DNA of 64,000 bases from Candidatus Omnitrophota bacterium (GTDB lineage: Bacteria; Omnitrophota; Gorgyraeia; Gygaellales; Profunditerraquicolaceae): positions 8,505 through 72,504 of the forward strand of contig JAQURX010000006.1 of assembly GCA_028715415.1 (NCBI GenBank), read 5' to 3'. Position numbers and translations under genes: made by a program. The notes beneath the pieces are model-generated. The model was given only the letters and a program-made list of their open reading frames with translations, was not told the DNA's origin and searched no databases. Each line of letters begins with the position of its first letter. Within the stretch, counting starts at the first letter, position 1. This document shows positions 7,467 through 37,383 of this stretch, piece after piece.

Positions 7467-7625
7467 ATGGGGTATCAAGGTGGTGGTTTCGGCGGACCAA
7501 GAGAAATGCACAAGGCAGTTTGCTCGGAATGTAAAAAAGAGTGCGAAGTTCCATTTAAGCCTAGAGAAGACCGTCCGATATATTGCAAGGATTGTTATTC
7601 AAAACGTAAAAACGAAGGTCGTTAA
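7467..7625 (+). CDS. Small zinc-ribbon protein (52 aa, CxxC-x17-CxxC, Gly-rich N-terminus)
   Basis: Strong RBS AAAGGAGG. MGYQGGGFGGPREMHKAVCSECKKECEVPFKPREDRPIYCKDCYSKRKNEGR. Followed by a clean terminator. Confidence 0.5.
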   Translation: MGYQGGGFGGPREMHKAVCSECKKECEVPFKPREDRPIYCKDCYSKRKNEGR

Positions 7626-7957: not shown

Positions 7958-8593
7958 ATGAATATTTTCGTAGGTAATTTGTCGTTTGACGCCAATGAGA
8001 GTGATGTAAAGAACCTTTTTCAAGGATTTGGGAATGTTGTTTCTGTGACAATCGTGATGGAGAGAGAGAAAAAAGCGCCCAAGTCAAGAGGGTTCGGTTT
8101 TGTGGAGATGCCTGATGAACAGCAGGCGCTTTCCGCGATTACTGCTCTTAACGATAAGGAATTTATGGGGCGTGTTCTTGTTGTGAATCCTTCGCGTCCT
8201 AAAACTAAAGCTCAAGCTGCAAGCAGTTTAAGAGGCAACAGGCAGCCGAAGATTGCAGTTGAAGAAAGAGGACAGAAAAAAAACCGGTTTAATTCAGTCT
8301 TAAACAAACCCGGTACATTCAGGGGCGGCAGGCGCACGAATAGTTATATGAAACGGCAAGGTTTAGTTGGAATTCAGGAAGAAGCTAAGCCATGGCGAAG
8401 TAATCGTCAGGAAAATCCAATGCGCTGGCGTAAAAGAAGAGATCAGCCAAAACCTTGGCAGAAGAGTGCGGGTGAGAGTAAGCCTTGGAAGAAAACTGAG
8501 GGAGAAGCGCGGCCATGGAAGAAAGCAGGCGGTGAGCATTCGCAAAAACCACGGTTTAAAGGACGAAGTAAGCCGGGCGGCTATAAACGATGA
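7958..8593 (+). CDS. RNA-binding protein with N-terminal RRM domain and long basic KPW-repeat tail
   Basis: RNP2 IFVGNL and RNP1 RGFGFVEM motifs. Residues after about 90 are Arg/Lys-rich with four (A/S/P)(K/R)PW(R/Q/K)K repeats. AAGGAGG RBS. Confidence 0.85.
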   Translation: MNIFVGNLSFDANESDVKNLFQGFGNVVSVTIVMEREKKAPKSRGFGFVEMPDEQQALSAITALNDKEFMGRVLVVNPSRPKTKAQAASSLRGNRQPKIAVEERGQKKNRFNSVLNKPGTFRGGRRTNSYMKRQGLVGIQEEAKPWRSNRQENPMRWRKRRDQPKPWQKSAGESKPWKKTEGEARPWKKAGGEHSQKPRFKGRSKPGGYKR

Positions 8594-8841: not shown

Positions 8842-9249
8842 ATGGTTGGATTAGATAAAGAAAAATCACTACAAGGCATTATGGCGCGCTTGGGCGTGCG
8901 TGAGGATGATATTGTAGAAAGATTTGTCCGTGCGCAAGGGCCGGGTGGGCAGAATGTGAATAAAGTCTCTACTTGTGTGCAGCTAATCCATCTTCCTACG
9001 GGCATTGAAGTTAAGTGCCAGGAAGAGCGTTCTCAGGCTCAAAACCGTTATCGTGCCCGGCAGATTCTATTAAAGAAAATTGAGAATTTGATCTTAGGAA
9101 AGCTTTCTGAAGAACAAAAACGCATTGAAAAAATTCGCCGGCAGAAAAGAAGAAGGTCGCGCAGGGCGAAATTAAAGATATTGGAATCAAAACGCCTTCA
9201 TGGCGCAAAGAAAATTTTAAGGGCCCGTGTGCGGGAAACCGGGGAATAA
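8842..9249 (+). CDS. arfB: Ribosome-rescue peptidyl-tRNA hydrolase ArfB (YaeJ)
   Basis: 135 aa with a [15 protein letters not shown]-loop. The C-terminal [11 protein letters not shown] basic tail is typical of ArfB. Confidence 0.85.
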
Positions 9250-9322
9250 AATAAGTAGTTACTCAGCTTAGTGCAGTTTCCGCTGAAGCTATAGTAATAA
9301 ATATTCATAAAGAGGAAAAATA

Positions 9323-9447
9323 TTGATATTATATATAAAATGATATAATAATAAAAACGCAACAGAGGAGATAGTTATGAGTTGCGGAATAAAGAATAAT
9401 TTTAAGGGGCAGATTAAGAGCTAAGTATATCTGCCTCTTATTTTTTT
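9323..9447 (+). promoter_or_regulatory. Promoter (TTGATA ... TGaTATAAT), 15-codon uORF (9377-9424, MSCGIKNNFKGQIKS) and hairpin+U9, an attenuator-like leader
   Basis: Extended -10 at 9341-9349. GAGGAG RBS 6 nt before the uORF ATG. The uORF stop lies in the hairpin loop (GGGCAGAT/ATCTGCCT), which is followed by TTATTTTTTT and then the AGGAGG RBS of the main gene. Confidence 0.4.
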
Positions 9448-9463
9448 AATAGGAGGAACTATT

Positions 9464-10738
9464 TTGAGAAAAGAAAGGATTAATGGTGTTGTCAAAGTAA
9501 AAGAAAAGGTAAACTTTATAAACAAAGTTTCATCTTTTACTGTTCTTGGCGATCCCGGATGTGATGGGCTTGGTGTAGAGATAATGACTACTTTTGCAAA
9601 AGCAATGAGTTGTACGCATACAGATTTTAAGATTATTTTGGGTGATCTTGTCCCATTTGGGCTGGAAGAGTTTTATAAACACATTTACGGAATTATAAAT
9701 AATGTATCTCCAAATCGTGTCTATACTTTATGCGGCAATCATGATACTGATTATTACGTAACATATTTTGGCCTGAAGAATTATATATTGGTAAACGATG
9801 ACTTATTGGTTGTTGTTCTGGATAATTCAAAAAGATTTTTTGAAGCCGAAACTCTCGATTTCCTTGATGAATCTTTAAAAGGCTATAAGCGTAAAAATAT
9901 ACTGATATTATTCCATATCCCTCCTCCGAACAATTTCTCTACCAATAGCATGAAGGTTGAAGAATGGCGGAAGTTAAAACCGATTTTGGATCCCTACAAA
10001 AATAATATCAGGTATATACTCGCAGGGCATGTTCATTCTTTTTTTGAGGATAATTTAGATGGTTATAAGATAATCGTATCAGCCGGAGGCGGGGCAAGGC
10101 TGGAATTTTTTGGCCGTTTACCAGATAAGAATAGTTCATTTCATCATGTATTAAGGTTCTACTTTGATAAGAATTCCAGGTTGCAATATGAATACATGTC
10201 GCTAGCAGATGTATCATATGGCCGCGAGATCAAAAACAAGAAAATTGAAAAATATCTTGATGAGGCTTTTCGAAACGAAGCAATGGCACATATCCGTTAT
10301 CAATTTTTTGCAGATGATGCGCATGAAAAGGGTTTTATCGGGATAGAAAAACTTTTTTTGGCATTATCCAAGTCGGCTTTTTTTCATGCGAAGAATTATT
10401 TTAGTATTCTAAATAATCTGCAGGGTATTGGGCATAATCTTAAATTGAGCCGGAAGATTGAAAAAGCAGATACAGCTGAGCTTCTTTTAAAATATCTACC
10501 GTATTCTATCAAAGCAAATTTGCCTTTAGCCCGGTATGCGTTCGGCGAGGCATATGGTGCAAAAAATAACTATTCCGGATTATTGCCGGAAGCAATTAAA
10601 GCTTATAGTAAAGGAGAAGATATAGGCCAATATGGCTATTATGTATGCACATCTTGTGGCAATACGGGACGGCTTGAGGGTGAACTGGAGCATTGTCCTA
10701 TATGCGGCGCTCCTTTAGACAAGATTATCAGAATGTAA
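9464..10738 (+). CDS. Fusion protein: calcineurin-like metallophosphoesterase + degenerate rubrerythrin-like four-helix domain + rubredoxin-like zinc ribbon
   Basis: TTG start 7 nt after AGGAGG. MPE motifs GDPGCDG, GDLVPFG, GNHD and GHVHSF. Then EAMAHIRYQFFADDAHEKGF (compare [23 protein letters not shown] in the genuine rubrerythrin at 36805), but several diiron ligands are substituted. C-terminal YYVCTSCG ... CPICG. Confidence 0.7.
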   Translation: MRKERINGVVKVKEKVNFINKVSSFTVLGDPGCDGLGVEIMTTFAKAMSCTHTDFKIILGDLVPFGLEEFYKHIYGIINNVSPNRVYTLCGNHDTDYYVTYFGLKNYILVNDDLLVVVLDNSKRFFEAETLDFLDESLKGYKRKNILILFHIPPPNNFSTNSMKVEEWRKLKPILDPYKNNIRYILAGHVHSFFEDNLDGYKIIVSAGGGARLEFFGRLPDKNSSFHHVLRFYFDKNSRLQYEYMSLADVSYGREIKNKKIEKYLDEAFRNEAMAHIRYQFFADDAHEKGFIGIEKLFLALSKSAFFHAKNYFSILNNLQGIGHNLKLSRKIEKADTAELLLKYLPYSIKANLPLARYAFGEAYGAKNNYSGLLPEAIKAYSKGEDIGQYGYYVCTSCGNTGRLEGELEHCPICGAPLDKIIRM

Positions 10739-10753
10739 AATAAGGAGAATAAA

Positions 10754-10879
10754 ATGGCTGTTGAGAAAACAGGAGAGAAGTATAGGTGTAATGTTTGCGG
10801 TAATGAGGTTGTTGTAACAAAGGTTGGCGGCGGAGAACTTGTTTGTTGCGCTCAAGCGATGGAAAAAATCGAAGGGTAA
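10754..10879 (+). CDS. Desulforedoxin-like small Fe(Cys)4 protein (41 aa)
   Basis: MAVEKTGEKYRCNVCGNEVVVTKVGGGELVCCAQAMEKIEG, with the same Cys spacing as D. gigas desulforedoxin (..YKCELCGQVV ... GGGTLVCCGEDM..). AAGGAG RBS. Confidence 0.65.
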   Translation: MAVEKTGEKYRCNVCGNEVVVTKVGGGELVCCAQAMEKIEG

Positions 10880-10901
10880 AATAAGGAAGGAGGTGATTAG
10901 C

Positions 10902-11012
10902 ATGTGCGACTCTTGCGGGTGCTCTCCATGTAAGAAATGCGGTAAGCCAATCAAGAATGGAGTTTGCGAAGGCTGTAAAAAGAAAGCTGATGAATGCGTT
11001 TGTAAGAAATAA
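10902..11012 (+). CDS. Cys-rich metallothionein-like peptide (36 aa, 10 Cys)
   Basis: GGAAGGAGG RBS then ATG. MCDSCGCSPCKKCGKPIKNGVCEGCKKKADECVCKK. Confidence 0.5.
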   Translation: MCDSCGCSPCKKCGKPIKNGVCEGCKKKADECVCKK

Positions 11013-11055
11013 TTTTTAGACATCTTGGTTTAAACATAATATATTTACGTACAAA

Positions 11056-11097
11056 ATAGCCGTAGTTACAAAAAGTAGCTGCGGCTATTTTTTTTTG
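11056..11097 (+). terminator. Rho-independent terminator
   Basis: ATAGCCGTAG ... CTGCGGCTAT stem followed by T9. Confidence 0.6.
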
Positions 11098-11160
11098 AAA
11101 GTATCTCATTGATGCATTAAACCTTGATTATCGTCTTCCCCGGATTTATAATAATTACCT

Positions 11161-11415
11161 ATGGCCTGGCATGTTTATATTATTGAATGCAAAGATGGAA
11201 AGTTTTATACAGGCATAACTAAAGATTTAAAACGTAGATTAAGAGAGCATGATAGCGGTAATGGTTGCAAGTATACCAGTTGTCGCGCTCCGGTTAAATT
11301 AGTACATAGTGAAAAAGCATTAAACAGGTCGCGAGCGCTTAAGAGAGAGGCTCAGATTAAGCAGCTATCAAGGGAAGCGAAGCTCAAGTTGATTAAAAGG
11401 GTAGATGTAGATTGA
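11161..11415 (+). CDS. GIY-YIG nuclease superfamily protein (UPF0213/YhbQ-like)
   Basis: 84 aa. WHVYIIECKDGKFYTGITKDLKRRLREH matches the GIY-(x10)-YTG motif with the Arg and Glu that follow. Confidence 0.8.
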   Translation: MAWHVYIIECKDGKFYTGITKDLKRRLREHDSGNGCKYTSCRAPVKLVHSEKALNRSRALKREAQIKQLSREAKLKLIKRVDVD

Positions 11416-33549: not shown

Positions 33550-36500
33550 ATGCCAAGAAGAAATGATATTAAAAAGGTTTTGATTATCGGTTCCGGCCCA
33601 ATAATTATCGGACAGGCGTGTGAATTTGATTATTCAGGTACACAGGCATGTAAGGCGCTGCGTGAGGAAGGTTATGAGGTTGTGTTGGTTAATTCTAATC
33701 CGGCGACTATTATGACTGACCCGGGTATGGCGGACCGCACTTATATTGAGCCTTTAACAGTTGAAAGCGTAACTAAGATAATTGCCAAAGAAAAACCAGA
33801 CGCGCTTTTGCCTAACTTGGGTGGGCAAACAGGATTAAACCTCGCCTCAGCTTTAAATAAGGCAGGGGTTTTAGAGAAATATAAAGTAAAGATTATTGGA
33901 GTAAAGGCTGATGCGATTGAGCGCGGAGAAGACCGGGAGGCATTTAAGGCTACGATGAAGAAGCTTGGTATCCCAGTGCCTCTTTCAGAGATTTGTCTTT
34001 CTGTTGAAGAAGCTCTTAAGGTTGCACAAAAAATGGGTTATCCTGTAGTAATCCGGCCTGCATATACTTTGGGAGGTACTGGCGGCGGCATTGCCTATAA
34101 TAATGAAGACTTAAGCACATTAACCACTCGTGGTTTAAATGCCAGTCTTATACATCAAATTTTAATTGAAGAAGCTGTTATTGGTTGGGAAGAGCTTGAG
34201 CTTGAAGCAGTGCGTGATGAAAAGAATCAGATGATAACTGTTTGTTTTATTGAGAATATTGACGCGATGGGAGTGCATACGGGGGATAGTTTTTGTGTTG
34301 CTCCCATGCAGACTGTTCCTGAGGAATTGCAAAAGAAAATGCAGGATTATTCTTATAGAATAGTTGAAGCTATCGGGGTCGTGGGTGGGACAAATATCCA
34401 GTTTGCCCATAATCTTAAGGATGATCGACTGGTGGTTATTGAAATCAATCCCCGTACTTCACGATCCTCGGCACTTGCTTCAAAGGCAACGGGTTTCCCC
34501 ATTGCCCGCGTTTCTACAAAATTAGCTGCAGGTTTAAATCTTGACGAAATCCCTTATTGGAGAAAAGGTACATTGGAGAAATATGAGCCATGGGGGGAAT
34601 ATGTAGTAATTAAATTTGCGCGCTGGGCTTTTGAGAAATTCCCTAAAGCAAAAGATATTCTTGGTACTCAGATGAAGGCGGTAGGCGAGGTAATGAGTAT
34701 TGCTAAGAATTTCAAAGAAGCGTTTCAGAAATCCATCCGTTCGCTTGAAATAGGAAGGTATGGTTTAGGTTTCGCAAAAGATTTTAATAGCTTACCTTTG
34801 GAAGATCTAAAAATGAAGCTTTCTTTCCCATCCAGCCAGCGCTTGTTTATCATGTATGAAGCGTTACGTAAAGGTATGGGTGTAGACGAGCTTTATGGCC
34901 TAACATATATAGGTAAGCCATTTATTCAGGAAATGGAGGAGATGGTAGAACTTGAAGAAGAGATGCTTAAATGCGGATGGAGTAAATTATCGGATGATGT
35001 TTTAAAGAAAGCAAAAGCATGGGGCTTTAGCGATAAGTATCTTGCGAAAATCTTTAAATTAGAGGAAAAGGATGTAAGGGCACGCAGGAAAAAGGTTGTC
35101 GGTAACGCGCGTTTCGAGCCAGTCCCTGTAAGCGGGGTTGAAAACGCAGCATATTATTATTCTACTTATACTCCGGGTAAAGATTTGGTCCCTGTTTCCG
35201 ATAAAAAGAAGATTTTGATTTTAGGCGGTGGGCCTAATCGGATCGGGCAGGGAATTGAATTTGACTATACTTGCGTCCACGCTGCATTCGCTTTACGAGA
35301 TGAGGGTTTAGAGTCAATTATGATTAACTGTAATCCCGAAACAGTTTCAACGGATTATGATACTTCCAATAAATTATATTTTGAACCATTGACGGTTGAA
35401 GATGTTTTGGCAATTTGGGAGAAAGAGAAGCCAATAGGCGCTATTGTCCAGTTTGGAGGGCAAACGCCGCTTAATATTGCCTCCGAACTTGAACAAAATG
35501 GCGTAAAAATATTAGGAACCAGCACAAAAAGCATTGCTTTTGCAGAAGACCGCGAACTTTTCCGCCAGAAAATGATTGAGCTCGGGATCCGGCAGACTGA
35601 GGGAGCGACGGCATTTTCTCTGGAGGAAGCTGTAAAGATTGCTAAAAAGATAGGTTATCCGGTAATGGTCAGGCCTTCTTTTGTTTTGGGCGGCCGCGGC
35701 ATGGAAGTTATTTACGATGAAGGAATGCTTGTTAAATATGCCAAAGAAGCGATACAGGTGAGCCCGGAGTATCCGATGCTTATTGATAGATTCCTGGAAA
35801 AAGCAGTTGAGTGTGAAGTGGATGCGCTTTGCGACGGGAAGGATACATTTGTTGCAGCGGTTATGGAGCATATTGAGCATGCCGGGATTCATTCTGGAGA
35901 TTCGGCTTGTACTATTCCAACGCGTACATTAAAGCCGGAGCATTTAAAAACAATTGACGAATGGACAAAGAAAATTGCCGCTGAATTAAAAGTAGCGGGT
36001 TTGATTAATATTCAATTCGCTATTTGTGACGATAAAGTATATATCCTTGAGGCAAATCCGCGCGCTTCTAGAACAGTGCCGGTAGTATCAAAAGTAGTCG
36101 GGATTCCGATTGCCCGCATTGCTACACTTTTAATGTTGGGTAAAAAATTAAGCGATTTTCCCGAGCTTGTGCATAAAAAACTTCCTTACGTCGCTGTTAA
36201 AGAAGCAGTTTTTCCCTTTAACATGTTCCCGGAGGTTGATCCTGTTTTAGGCCCGGAGATGCGCGCAACCGGAGAGGTAATGGGAATTGATGAAGATTTT
36301 GGTTTGGCATTTTTTAAGGCCGAGGAATCGTCTGGTACGAAGCTTCCTGTAGAGGGAAATTGTTTGGTGACAGTAAGAGATGCTGATAAGCCAGAGCTTT
36401 TCCCGATTGCTGCTAAATTGTCAAAGTTGGGGTTTAAAATATTTGCTACGGAAAATACTCAGCGCTTTTTAAAAGAAAAAGGGGTGGATTCGGTTTTGGC

Positions 36501-36786
36501 AAAGAAATTACACGAAGGCCGCCCAAATATTTCTGATAGTATCAAAAATAGAGAAATTAATTTGATTATTAATACTCCTGTTGGACGTATGAGTGTCCAC
36601 GATGATAGTTATATTCGTATGCTTGCAATTCAATATAAGATTCCTTATGTAACAACAATGTCTGCAGCCCGTGCAACTGTGGATGGTATTGAAGCTGTAA
36701 AGAAAAAGCAGAGCCAGCCAAAGTCTTTGCAGGAGTATCACGCGCTATTAAAGGAAAGTGAAGTAGAAAAAAGCATTGCATGTTAA
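33550..36786 (+). CDS. carB: Carbamoyl-phosphate synthase large subunit
   Basis: 1078 aa with a duplicated ATP-grasp architecture. VLIIGSGPIIIGQACEFDYSGTQA N-terminus and the MGS-like C-terminal domain. Confidence 0.95.
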   Translation: MPRRNDIKKVLIIGSGPIIIGQACEFDYSGTQACKALREEGYEVVLVNSNPATIMTDPGMADRTYIEPLTVESVTKIIAKEKPDALLPNLGGQTGLNLASALNKAGVLEKYKVKIIGVKADAIERGEDREAFKATMKKLGIPVPLSEICLSVEEALKVAQKMGYPVVIRPAYTLGGTGGGIAYNNEDLSTLTTRGLNASLIHQILIEEAVIGWEELELEAVRDEKNQMITVCFIENIDAMGVHTGDSFCVAPMQTVPEELQKKMQDYSYRIVEAIGVVGGTNIQFAHNLKDDRLVVIEINPRTSRSSALASKATGFPIARVSTKLAAGLNLDEIPYWRKGTLEKYEPWGEYVVIKFARWAFEKFPKAKDILGTQMKAVGEVMSIAKNFKEAFQKSIRSLEIGRYGLGFAKDFNSLPLEDLKMKLSFPSSQRLFIMYEALRKGMGVDELYGLTYIGKPFIQEMEEMVELEEEMLKCGWSKLSDDVLKKAKAWGFSDKYLAKIFKLEEKDVRARRKKVVGNARFEPVPVSGVENAAYYYSTYTPGKDLVPVSDKKKILILGGGPNRIGQGIEFDYTCVHAAFALRDEGLESIMINCNPETVSTDYDTSNKLYFEPLTVEDVLAIWEKEKPIGAIVQFGGQTPLNIASELEQNGVKILGTSTKSIAFAEDRELFRQKMIELGIRQTEGATAFSLEEAVKIAKKIGYPVMVRPSFVLGGRGMEVIYDEGMLVKYAKEAIQVSPEYPMLIDRFLEKAVECEVDALCDGKDTFVAAVMEHIEHAGIHSGDSACTIPTRTLKPEHLKTIDEWTKKIAAELKVAGLINIQFAICDDKVYILEANPRASRTVPVVSKVVGIPIARIATLLMLGKKLSDFPELVHKKLPYVAVKEAVFPFNMFPEVDPVLGPEMRATGEVMGIDEDFGLAFFKAEESSGTKLPVEGNCLVTVRDADKPELFPIAAKLSKLGFKIFATENTQRFLKEKGVDSVLAKKLHEGRPNISDSIKNREINLIINTPVGRMSVHDDSYIRMLAIQYKIPYVTTMSAARATVDGIEAVKKKQSQPKSLQEYHALLKESEVEKSIAC

Positions 36787-36804: not shown

Positions 36805-37383
36805 ATGTCAGCTTCAATTAAAGGGACTAAAACCGAAAAGAATCTTTTAAAGGCTTTTGCCGGAGAATCTCAAGCTCGTAATAGGTATACTTATTTTGCT
36901 TCTGCTGCAAAAAAAGAGGGTTTTGAGCAGATTGCCAATATATTCACTGAAACTGCGGAAAACGAGAAAGAACACGCTAAGGTTTTTTTTAAGCATCTTG
37001 AGGGCGGAGATGTAGAGATTACTGCAACTTACCCTGCAGGCATGATTAAGGATACTAAAACTAACCTCGAAGAGGCTGCTGCCGGAGAGAATATGGAGTG
37101 GACAACTCTTTATTCAGATTTTGCAAAAACAGCACGTGATGAGGGCTTCCCTGAAGTGGCGCGTTCTTTTGAGCAGATTTCAAAGGTTGAGAAATACCAT
37201 GAATCAAGATACAGAAAATTAATTAATAATATTGTTAATGGTGAAGTGTTTAAGAAGAAAGAAACAGTAAAATGGCATTGTATTAATTGTGGTTATGTAG
37301 TAGAAGGGGAGGCAGCTCCTAAAGAATGCCCTGCTTGTAAACATCCTCAAGCGTATTTTGAAGTTCTTGCTGAGAATTATTGA
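36805..37383 (+). CDS. rbr: Rubrerythrin (diiron four-helix domain + C-terminal rubredoxin-like domain)
   Basis: [15 protein letters not shown] ... EKEHAK ... E..E..H ligands, and WHCINCG ... CPACKHP. Confidence 0.9.

Follow-up and report, generated by a model that had tools for sequence, protein, structure and literature searches.

A stand-alone desulforedoxin and a conserved nine-cysteine mini-protein encoded side by side in a putative Omnitrophota operon

The stretch of DNA analysed here (hereafter the window; 64 kb of an Omnitrophota genome) contains two small genes that follow one another immediately downstream of a gene for a larger fusion protein (Table 1). The first encodes a desulforedoxin and the second a cysteine-rich mini-protein, hereafter the peptide. 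The positions, the spacing and the ribosome-binding site given for both ORFs in a preliminary description of the region are correct by sequence. The desulforedoxin gene starts 15 nt past the stop codon of the fusion gene, behind an AAGGAG, and a 22-nt spacer containing the Shine-Dalgarno sequence of the peptide gene separates the two small genes. TATAAT-like boxes occupy the position equivalent to the promoter-like site in three related loci (L094, L095 and L097). The terminator downstream of the peptide gene folds at -29.7 kcal/mol (z = -6.8), and the peptide genes of L095 and L097 are likewise trailed by intrinsic terminators. Because the spacers are so short, because only one promoter-like site precedes the genes and only one strong terminator follows them, and because the gene order in L095 is identical, the three genes look co-transcribed. 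We infer that the region forms the 3' part of a single transcription unit, presumably co-regulated, which would run from the promoter through a leader ORF with a Cys codon and a terminator-like hairpin to the fusion gene, the desulforedoxin gene, the gene for the nine-Cys peptide and the terminator. No Rfam family scored above threshold within positions 9150-11200 of the window.

Table 1. Features of the putative operon, in window coordinates
Feature	Position	Strand	Basis
Promoter-like site TTGATA-18-AATAAT, upstream of the operon	9323..9352	+	consensus scan, 10/12 matches; predicted
Leader mini-ORF MSCGIKNNFKGQIKS with its own SD, AGAGGAG	9377..9424	+	sequence reading
Attenuator-like hairpin (12-bp stem) and U-run, just 5' of the fusion SD	9403..9449	+	RNA fold
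Fusion gene, 424 aa: metallophosphoesterase, degenerate rubrerythrin-like domain, rubredoxin-like C-terminus	9464..10738	+	Pfam profiles, alignment
Stand-alone desulforedoxin, 41 aa, MAVEKTGEKYRCNVCGNEVVVTKVGGGELVCCAQAMEKIEG	10754..10879	+	PF06397, TIGR00319, PDB match
Shine-Dalgarno sequence GGAGGTGA of the peptide gene	10889..10896	+	sequence reading
Nine-Cys mini-protein, 36 aa, MCDSCGCSPCKKCGKPIKNGVCEGCKKKADECVCKK, unnamed family	10902..11012	+	homologue scans, selection, AF2
Intrinsic terminator, 17-bp stem and T9, end of the operon	11053..11100	+	terminator scan

The fusion protein combines a calcineurin-like metallophosphoesterase, a rubrerythrin-like helical domain (rubrerythrin-type part at residues of about 255-424) and a rubredoxin-like CxxC...CxxC end. 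It scored 36 bits with PF00149, 32 bits with PF02915 and 20 bits with PF21349, the last being below the cut-off of that model, and the rubrerythrin model NF045767 gave 38.5 against a cut-off of 200. Compared with canonical rubrerythrin, whose seven diiron ligands include two ExxH motifs, the first ExxH motif reads AFFH, so that its Glu is lost, and the segment with the second ExxH is deleted in the window as well as in L095 and L097. With this Glu and the whole second motif absent, the fusion protein probably does not function as a diiron peroxidase. Orthologues are encoded in L095 (79% identity) and in L097/L098 (82% identity).

The 41-aa protein had been described as a stand-alone desulforedoxin on account of its C-x2-C...C-C spacing and GGG turn, and profile searches confirmed this assignment. 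It scored 60 bits with PF06397 (cut-off 23) and 40 bits with TIGR00319 (cut-off 36.05), and its best match in PDB was the desulforedoxin of Desulfovibrio gigas (1DXG/1CFW; E 3e-6), with 4/4 Cys aligned. The predicted ligands are C12-x2-C15, followed by the GGG turn, and the adjacent pair C31-C32; these four cysteines are invariant across 38 homologues, and pN relative to its relatives is 0.06-0.11 at saturated pS. The full desulfoferrodoxin model TIGR00320 matched at only positions 4-37 of 125 (35.6 bits, cut-off 146.9). The ORF ends without a superoxide-reductase domain and gives way to the 22-nt spacer and the peptide gene, and no remnant of such a domain was found in the roughly 280 nt, the entire distance, between the desulforedoxin and the next gene. 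The protein, already annotated by NCBI (P0001, 100% identical), thus reads as an ordinary stand-alone desulforedoxin, a small predicted Fe(Cys)4 protein. Typical desulforedoxins are homodimers with one Fe per chain in a distorted tetrahedral site.

Stand-alone desulforedoxin had been considered rare outside Desulfovibrio, a view that our searches contradict. A word-index search returned 375 clusters of homologous proteins at 90% identity; the 120 of these that were listed measure 40-72 aa and have PF06397 as their sole domain. A scan of genomes, one per species, identified a relative in at least 560 species genomes from many phyla. The best 80 of these genomic relatives are all stand-alone, ending after about 40 aa, and their hosts include Omnitrophota, Chloroflexota, Nitrospirota, Aminicenantes and Thermodesulfobacteriota as well as an Asgard (Hodarchaeaceae) MAG. 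A rubrerythrin gene lies within 3 kb of desulforedoxin in 34 of these 80 best loci. In 25 of the 80, a canonical rubrerythrin gene on the same strand comes immediately 3' of desulforedoxin, typically with 4-30 nt between the two. Rubrerythrin is the normal genetic partner of desulforedoxin in this lineage. Desulforubrerythrin of Campylobacter jejuni is described, in the part of PMC7482061 that cites Pinto 2011, as a fusion of desulforedoxin and rubrerythrin domains. Adjacent desulforedoxin and rubrerythrin genes are a split-gene version of this protein. The window has a canonical rubrerythrin gene of its own (36805-37383), 26 kb away and right after carB, whose product is 85% identical to the rubrerythrin of locus L017; no desulforedoxin gene lies in front of it. 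The window desulforedoxin would most likely pass electrons to a rubrerythrin-type or related partner.

The peptide had been credited with ten cysteines. It has nine (positions 2, 5, 7, 10, 13, 22, 25, 32 and 34). Its description as Cys-rich and encoded behind a strong ribosome-binding site stands, and it is a real, conserved protein. Nine Cys and nine Lys make up 25% each of its 36 residues, F, W, Y and H being absent. Among the remaining ATG-initiated ORFs of 20-90 aa in the window, none exceeds seven Cys. An exhaustive phmmer search against 1.84 billion representative proteins produced 21 matches at E <= 1e-3. A profile built from these matches collected 155 clusters, none of which has a Pfam domain; every name given by the sources is 'hypothetical protein'. 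A metagenome scan detected at least 231 loci of the family. Wherever sources name the host, it belongs to Planctomycetota (including Phycisphaerae and Sedimentisphaerales) or Omnitrophota. A word-index search with the peptide padded to a 40-aa query found no shared words.

Members of the family share the core motif M-C-x2-C-G-C-x-P-C-x2-C-G-x7-C-x-G-C-x6-C-x-C. Among 70 members, no substitution occurs at C5, C13, C22, C25, C32 or C34, and conservation reaches at least 90% at C2, C7 and C10. The conservation always begins at Met-Cys, and the longer entries in databases represent upstream mis-starts. An apparent CsbD-peptide fusion (P0261) was rejected as a single-contig read-through of an intergenic spacer. 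Two types of tail occur: a short basic one, as in the window, and a poly-acidic one of 30-50 residues ending in DW, DYS or DYN. In one subfamily C-K-C replaces C-x2-C at C10/C13. The Shine-Dalgarno sequence aGGAGGTGAt, 7-8 nt 5' of the ATG, is kept in homologues from unrelated contexts, and so is the intrinsic terminator. The peptide gene differs from its nearest homologue, in L094, by 20 synonymous and 3 non-synonymous changes; it is under strong purifying selection. The expectation that the two small ORFs would be conserved in related genomes was borne out, as both genes have pN of 0.03-0.15 against saturated synonymous sites in comparisons with close relatives, and hundreds of homologues exist.

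We found no description of this family in Pfam, NCBIfam, PDB or the literature. No Pfam family matched the window peptide at E <= 1 and no NCBIfam model matched it at all, and scans of the 70 members against both collections returned nothing significant. Literature searches for sequence strings of the family found no paper, and a general search on bacterial metallothioneins and small Cys-rich proteins gave nothing relevant. An exact-sequence look-up in a gene-position index returned no record for the peptide or for the desulforedoxin; for the peptide this says little, because the NCBI-annotated desulforedoxin is missing equally. The peptide belongs to a genuine, conserved and widespread family of mini-proteins that is as yet undescribed.

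We asked how closely the peptide is linked to desulforedoxin and to other genes, using 94 peptide loci with 65 distinct peptides. Desulforedoxin adjoins the peptide in two of the 94, the window and L095. Conversely, when small Cys-rich ORFs were sought beside desulforedoxin homologues elsewhere, the peptide lay 3' of desulforedoxin in none of the 80 best desulforedoxin loci. At that position one locus (L030) has an unrelated second desulforedoxin-like ORF and another (L061) a 6-Cys ORF. L095 repeats the order of the window: leader, fusion gene, desulforedoxin, peptide. L097/L098 show synteny with the window, having an RRM protein upstream and a GIY-YIG protein downstream, and there the leader and the fusion gene are followed directly by the peptide. 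Since desulforedoxin is present in L095 and absent in L097/L098, it is best regarded as an optional insert in a fusion-peptide unit; it is the fusion gene with which the peptide is linked in this Omnitrophota clade. In L094 the leader is followed directly by the peptide, which lies beside a tRNA gene and frr. The proposal that the genes form a compact metal/redox module therefore holds only in part. They do look co-transcribed and recur in the same order in L095, but the two small genes are paired in just 2 of the 94 peptide loci and in none of the 80 desulforedoxin loci, L097/L098 do without desulforedoxin, and the adjoining fusion protein lacks diiron ligands.

Elsewhere the peptide is found mostly in contexts that are unrelated to stress or of unknown function (DUF378, fasciclin, GH130, leuA, frr). 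A gene for a DUF378 protein is adjacent on the same strand in 11 of the 94 loci. A CsbD gene lies on the same strand, always about 86 nt upstream of the peptide, in eight loci. A WrbA-like FMN reductase is adjacent on the same strand in six, and in four of these six the string extends to rubredoxin and flavodiiron genes. The rubrerythrin-like fusion is a neighbour in four loci and a ferritin-like protein, on the same strand, in three. Judged from these raw locus counts, an association of the peptide with genes for oxidative or general stress is suggestive.

The leader mini-ORF of the window has homologues in L094 (MSCGKCGTSRR), L095 (MSCGKCGTKKKAKKKKK) and L097/98 (MSCRRCGRKQRTD), all sharing M-S-C-x2-C-G. 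Among 174 loci, the leader pattern ATGAGTTGC-N6-TGCGG occurs only in these four. Positions 9353-9480 of the window fold at -28.7 kcal/mol (z = -4.0), and the 3' end of the leader ORF overlaps the hairpin. An equivalent hairpin with a U-run, built from different sequence, is present in L095 and L097/98, so that the placement of leader ORF and hairpin is kept in three lineages. This arrangement looks like a translation-coupled attenuator, and it could possibly sense cysteine supply; the leader ORF of the window has a single Cys codon, and no alternative antiterminator fold was identified. An inverted repeat around the start of the leader, CGCAAC-N17-GTTGCG, looked like an operator; of the loci compared at that stage, the window and L094 have one copy each. 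It was rejected because L097 has no such repeat, which makes the leader ORF the conserved unit.

AF2 modelling of the peptide with an alignment of 70 sequences gave a mean pLDDT of 80, with an average of 63 for residues 1-10 and 83-89 for the remainder. The model has a β-hairpin at residues 17-22, between C13 and C22. A fold search with it returned no match. A profile search against PDB gave only sub-threshold C4 zinc ribbons, namely eL37 (E 0.07), MutM and RecR, aligned on C10...C25, and there was further weak similarity to two-zinc cross-brace domains. None of the metallothionein, rubredoxin and zinc-finger profiles matched the peptide or the 70 members significantly. Kinship with desulforedoxin was rejected (hhalign probability 1.7%). 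Most likely, the peptide is a cytoplasmic mini-protein whose nine Cys would hold two or three metal ions. One site is probably zinc-ribbon-like, of the C4 type, formed by C10, C13, C22 and C25, although C-K-C at C10/C13, as in one subfamily, is at odds with a classical zinc knuckle. The second site, for which C2, C5, C7, C32 and C34 are the candidates, is a guess, given that residues 1-10 are modelled with low confidence.

Taking these results together, we favour, if by no wide measure, an explanation in three parts: an operon ending in the two small genes, an ordinary desulforedoxin, and a nine-Cys peptide acting as a metal-thiolate stress protein. The peptide would probably serve as a buffer or donor of Zn or Fe, or as a thiol sink for oxidants. 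It would not be the main electron carrier, since the operons in which it is found already encode a dedicated Fe(Cys)4 carrier, either desulforedoxin or rubredoxin. Its family, then, is new and yet probably of a familiar kind. A bolder version of this explanation, which we put forward tentatively, would make the nine-Cys family an unrecognised class of bacterial metal-thiolate stress proteins, from Planctomycetota and Omnitrophota wherever the host is named. They would act in O2/peroxide defence together with rubrerythrin-like and flavodiiron proteins and with desulforedoxin or rubredoxin. A cysteine-sensing leader-peptide attenuator would control their expression in this Omnitrophota clade and block synthesis of a Cys-rich protein when cysteine is scarce.

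It is also conceivable, if unlikely, that the peptide carries electrons by means of bound iron. With a small Fe-S cluster, or with one or two Fe(Cys)4 centres of the rubredoxin type, it would then do the work of a rubredoxin or desulforedoxin and feed rubrerythrin-like or flavodiiron enzymes. The CxxCG-type knuckles would suit such a protein, and the segment C7-x2-C10-x2-C13 resembles a ferredoxin motif. The peptide is moreover co-located with FMN reductase, rubredoxin and flavodiiron genes in some loci, and with desulforedoxin and a rubrerythrin-like protein in others. However, those operons already encode rubredoxin or desulforedoxin as a dedicated carrier. No rubredoxin (PF00301) or ferredoxin profile matches the peptide, which is free of the aromatic residues that usually form the core of a rubredoxin. 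For a carrier, the poly-acidic and poly-basic tails and the CxC variants are unusual, and most members of the family have no redox enzyme nearby.

Somewhat less probable again is that the peptide is a classical metallothionein for buffering or detoxification of Zn, Cu or Cd, unrelated to redox stress, with its position next to desulforedoxin being incidental. The mammalian metallothionein β-domain binds three metals with nine Cys, and the composition of the window peptide is similar: nine Cys within 34 residues, a quarter each of Cys and Lys, and neither His nor aromatic residues. The family is also found mostly as a stand-alone monocistronic gene in variable contexts. PF12749, a eukaryotic metallothionein model, gave sub-threshold matches in 9 of the 70 members (best E 0.13) and was the sole metallothionein model to do even that in the Pfam-A scan. 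Against this reading, no metal-efflux pump and no regulator of the ArsR/SmtB or MerR type recurs among the 94 loci, AF2 predicts a defined hairpin fold, and several clades have stress or redox genes as neighbours on the same strand.

Far less probable is a role as a basic zinc ribbon bound to ribosomes or nucleic acids, in the manner of small ribosomal zinc-ribbon proteins. The best similarity, non-significant as it is, was to the zinc ribbon of eL37, the window peptide is very rich in Lys, and its closest homologue lies beside a tRNA gene and frr. Yet RNA binding cannot be reconciled with the poly-acidic tails of 30-50 residues in many members, a ribbon needs fewer than nine conserved Cys, and there is no linkage to ribosomal operons. 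We also disfavour, as very improbable, a RiPP precursor such as a SCIFF-like ranthipeptide. The ORF is short and Cys-rich, and in one locus (L099) a radical-SAM-like gene sits on the other strand at a distance of about 0.6 kb, but no maturase, protease or exporter recurs beside the gene in the 94 loci, conservation from residue 1 leaves no split into leader and core, and no SCIFF or other RiPP profile of NCBIfam matches. Finally, the two ORFs, or one of them, might be spurious, the peptide arising by chance and the desulforedoxin as the remnant of a disrupted desulfoferrodoxin, but this reading can be dismissed: the missing gene-position record for the exact peptide sequence is shared by the desulforedoxin and carries little weight, while purifying selection on both ORFs, hundreds of homologues of the same length, the conserved start, Shine-Dalgarno sequence and terminator, and the failure of TIGR00320 and of the DNA 3' of desulforedoxin to reveal any superoxide-reductase remnant refute it.

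As to the significance of the locus, the desulforedoxin makes two points: the stand-alone form is widespread in uncultured anaerobes, and rubrerythrin is its usual gene partner. The peptide exemplifies a conserved, unannotated family of 36-85 aa with hundreds of metagenomic loci and the appearance of strong expression, which is absent from Pfam, NCBIfam and the literature that we found and whose genes are often mis-started by gene callers. Should the peptide prove to be a metal-thiolate stress protein, Planctomycetota and Omnitrophota would have one more component in their oxygen-tolerance toolkit, and the peptide would constitute a compact new metal-binding scaffold. The Cys-codon leader, in turn, would represent a rare candidate for cysteine-responsive attenuation.

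Among known systems, the closest counterpart of the 41-aa protein is D. gigas desulforedoxin, which it resembles in length class, in the C-x2-C...C-C ligands, in the GGG turn and in being stand-alone. It differs from that protein in having a five-residue N-terminal extension and an Omnitrophota host, and its gene follows a phosphoesterase/rubrerythrin-like fusion gene instead of lying near the redox genes of sulfate reducers. In C. jejuni desulforubrerythrin, desulforedoxin, rubrerythrin and rubredoxin domains are united in one chain, according to what PMC7482061 relates in the part citing Pinto 2011. The window has the same types of parts in separate genes, and the rubrerythrin-like domain next to its desulforedoxin is fused to a metallophosphoesterase and is without diiron ligands.

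The spacing C10-x2-C13-x8-C22-x2-C25 of the peptide, with a predicted hairpin between the knuckles, recalls the C4 zinc ribbons of eL37, MutM/Fpg and RecR, but the matches are non-significant (E >= 0.07) and five further conserved Cys lie outside the ribbon. Metallothioneins, both the mammalian β-domain and the bacterial SmtA/BmtA and MymT, are similar to the peptide in size, in a Cys content of 25%, in CxC and CxxC motifs, in richness in Lys, in the lack of aromatic residues and His, and in being cytoplasmic. The peptide stands apart from them in having strictly conserved spacing, a predicted β-hairpin and, in many members, long acidic tails; it shows no relationship to them by sequence or profile, and no metal-responsive regulators occur near it. 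The remaining parallel is with the O2-detoxifying operons of anaerobes that encode rubredoxin and flavodiiron proteins of the rubredoxin:oxygen oxidoreductase type. In four loci the peptide heads such a string of genes, as an extra component that has not been described for these operons.

The operon that encodes the metallophosphoesterase–rubrerythrin-like fusion, desulforedoxin and the nine-Cys peptide is preceded by a leader mini-ORF, homologs of which were found in three related loci carrying the peptide (see table). In the window, L095 and L097, a terminator-like hairpin with a U-run comes after the mini-ORF, close to the 5′ side of the fusion gene. At L094, the stop of the upstream ORF directly overlaps the Shine–Dalgarno (SD) sequence of the peptide gene. 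From this sequence arrangement, the leader is a candidate attenuator, which would be cysteine- or translation-coupled. Further upstream, synteny around the RRM protein gene is shared with L097/L098 and L042.

Within the fusion protein, the first ExxH motif reads AFFH, lacking the Glu, and the second is wholly absent from the rubrerythrin-like half, both in the window and in two orthologs. The rubredoxin-like CxxC...CxxC terminus is retained, and the phosphoesterase motifs (GDxG, GD, GNHD, H and GHxH) seem intact upon visual inspection.

Features of the window and of related loci
Feature	Location	Strand	Remark
52-aa CxxC...CxxC zinc-ribbon-like ORF	window 7467-7625	+	close 5′ of RRM protein gene
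RRM-domain RNA-binding protein	window 7958-8593	+	long basic tail
Leader mini-ORF and hairpin/U-run	window 9377-9449	+	conserved M-S-C-x2-C-G... start
Leader mini-ORF region, relatives	L095 3448-3545; L097 3604-3675; L094 990-1025		homologous M-S-C-x2-C-G...
Rubrerythrin-like half of 424-aa fusion	window 10196-10735	+	first ExxH degenerate, second absent
carB	window 33550-36786		directly 5′ of canonical rubrerythrin gene
Canonical rubrerythrin, 192 aa	window 36805-37383	+	immediately 3′ of carB
Desulforedoxin, 82% identity to that of the window	L063 3001-3135		contig labeled Candidatus Hodarchaeaceae (Asgard archaeon)
Poly-Asp/Glu-tailed nine-Cys members	L085 4001-4204; L113 979-1179		among many such proteins
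Nine-Cys peptide, WrbA-like FMN reductase, canonical rubredoxin, flavodiiron protein	L103 1204-3577		gene string, in this order

The window also encodes a canonical rubrerythrin, whose gene has no desulforedoxin gene directly 5′. L017, L021 and L024 are examples of relatives in which desulforedoxin is located immediately 5′ of the corresponding rubrerythrin, with a GIY-YIG gene 1–1.6 kb past the latter. In the window's lineage, the desulforedoxin gene has apparently moved to another place. The desulforedoxin on the Hodarchaeaceae contig is due either to lateral transfer or to erroneous binning. At two other loci desulforedoxin is followed by a further ORF. In a Clostridia-labeled MAG (L030), this is a second, longer desulforedoxin-like ORF with additional cysteines, ~62 nt downstream (MEKPKKGSRYTCRVCGLVVTVDNVCGCVEACDIICCGEQMKPKK); in one Omnitrophota MAG (L061), it is an unrelated 6-Cys ORF, ~107 nt downstream, terminating in CCCCK (MYKIVASKIFGVKPSGKDPDICNKCIDKPEKRNCCCCK).

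As for the nine-Cys family, a large subfamily bears a poly-Asp/Glu tail of 30–50 residues with a terminal aromatic residue (DW, DYS, DYN). One database protein, P0261 (cluster of P0175), was called on a 1.3-kb contig as a single 127-aa protein combining CsbD and the peptide. Since its linker corresponds to the translated intergenic spacer, SD included, it probably reflects a sequencing error or a lost stop, not a true fusion. Finally, the gene string of L103, in which the peptide comes first, recurs at three other loci (L102, L111 and L123).
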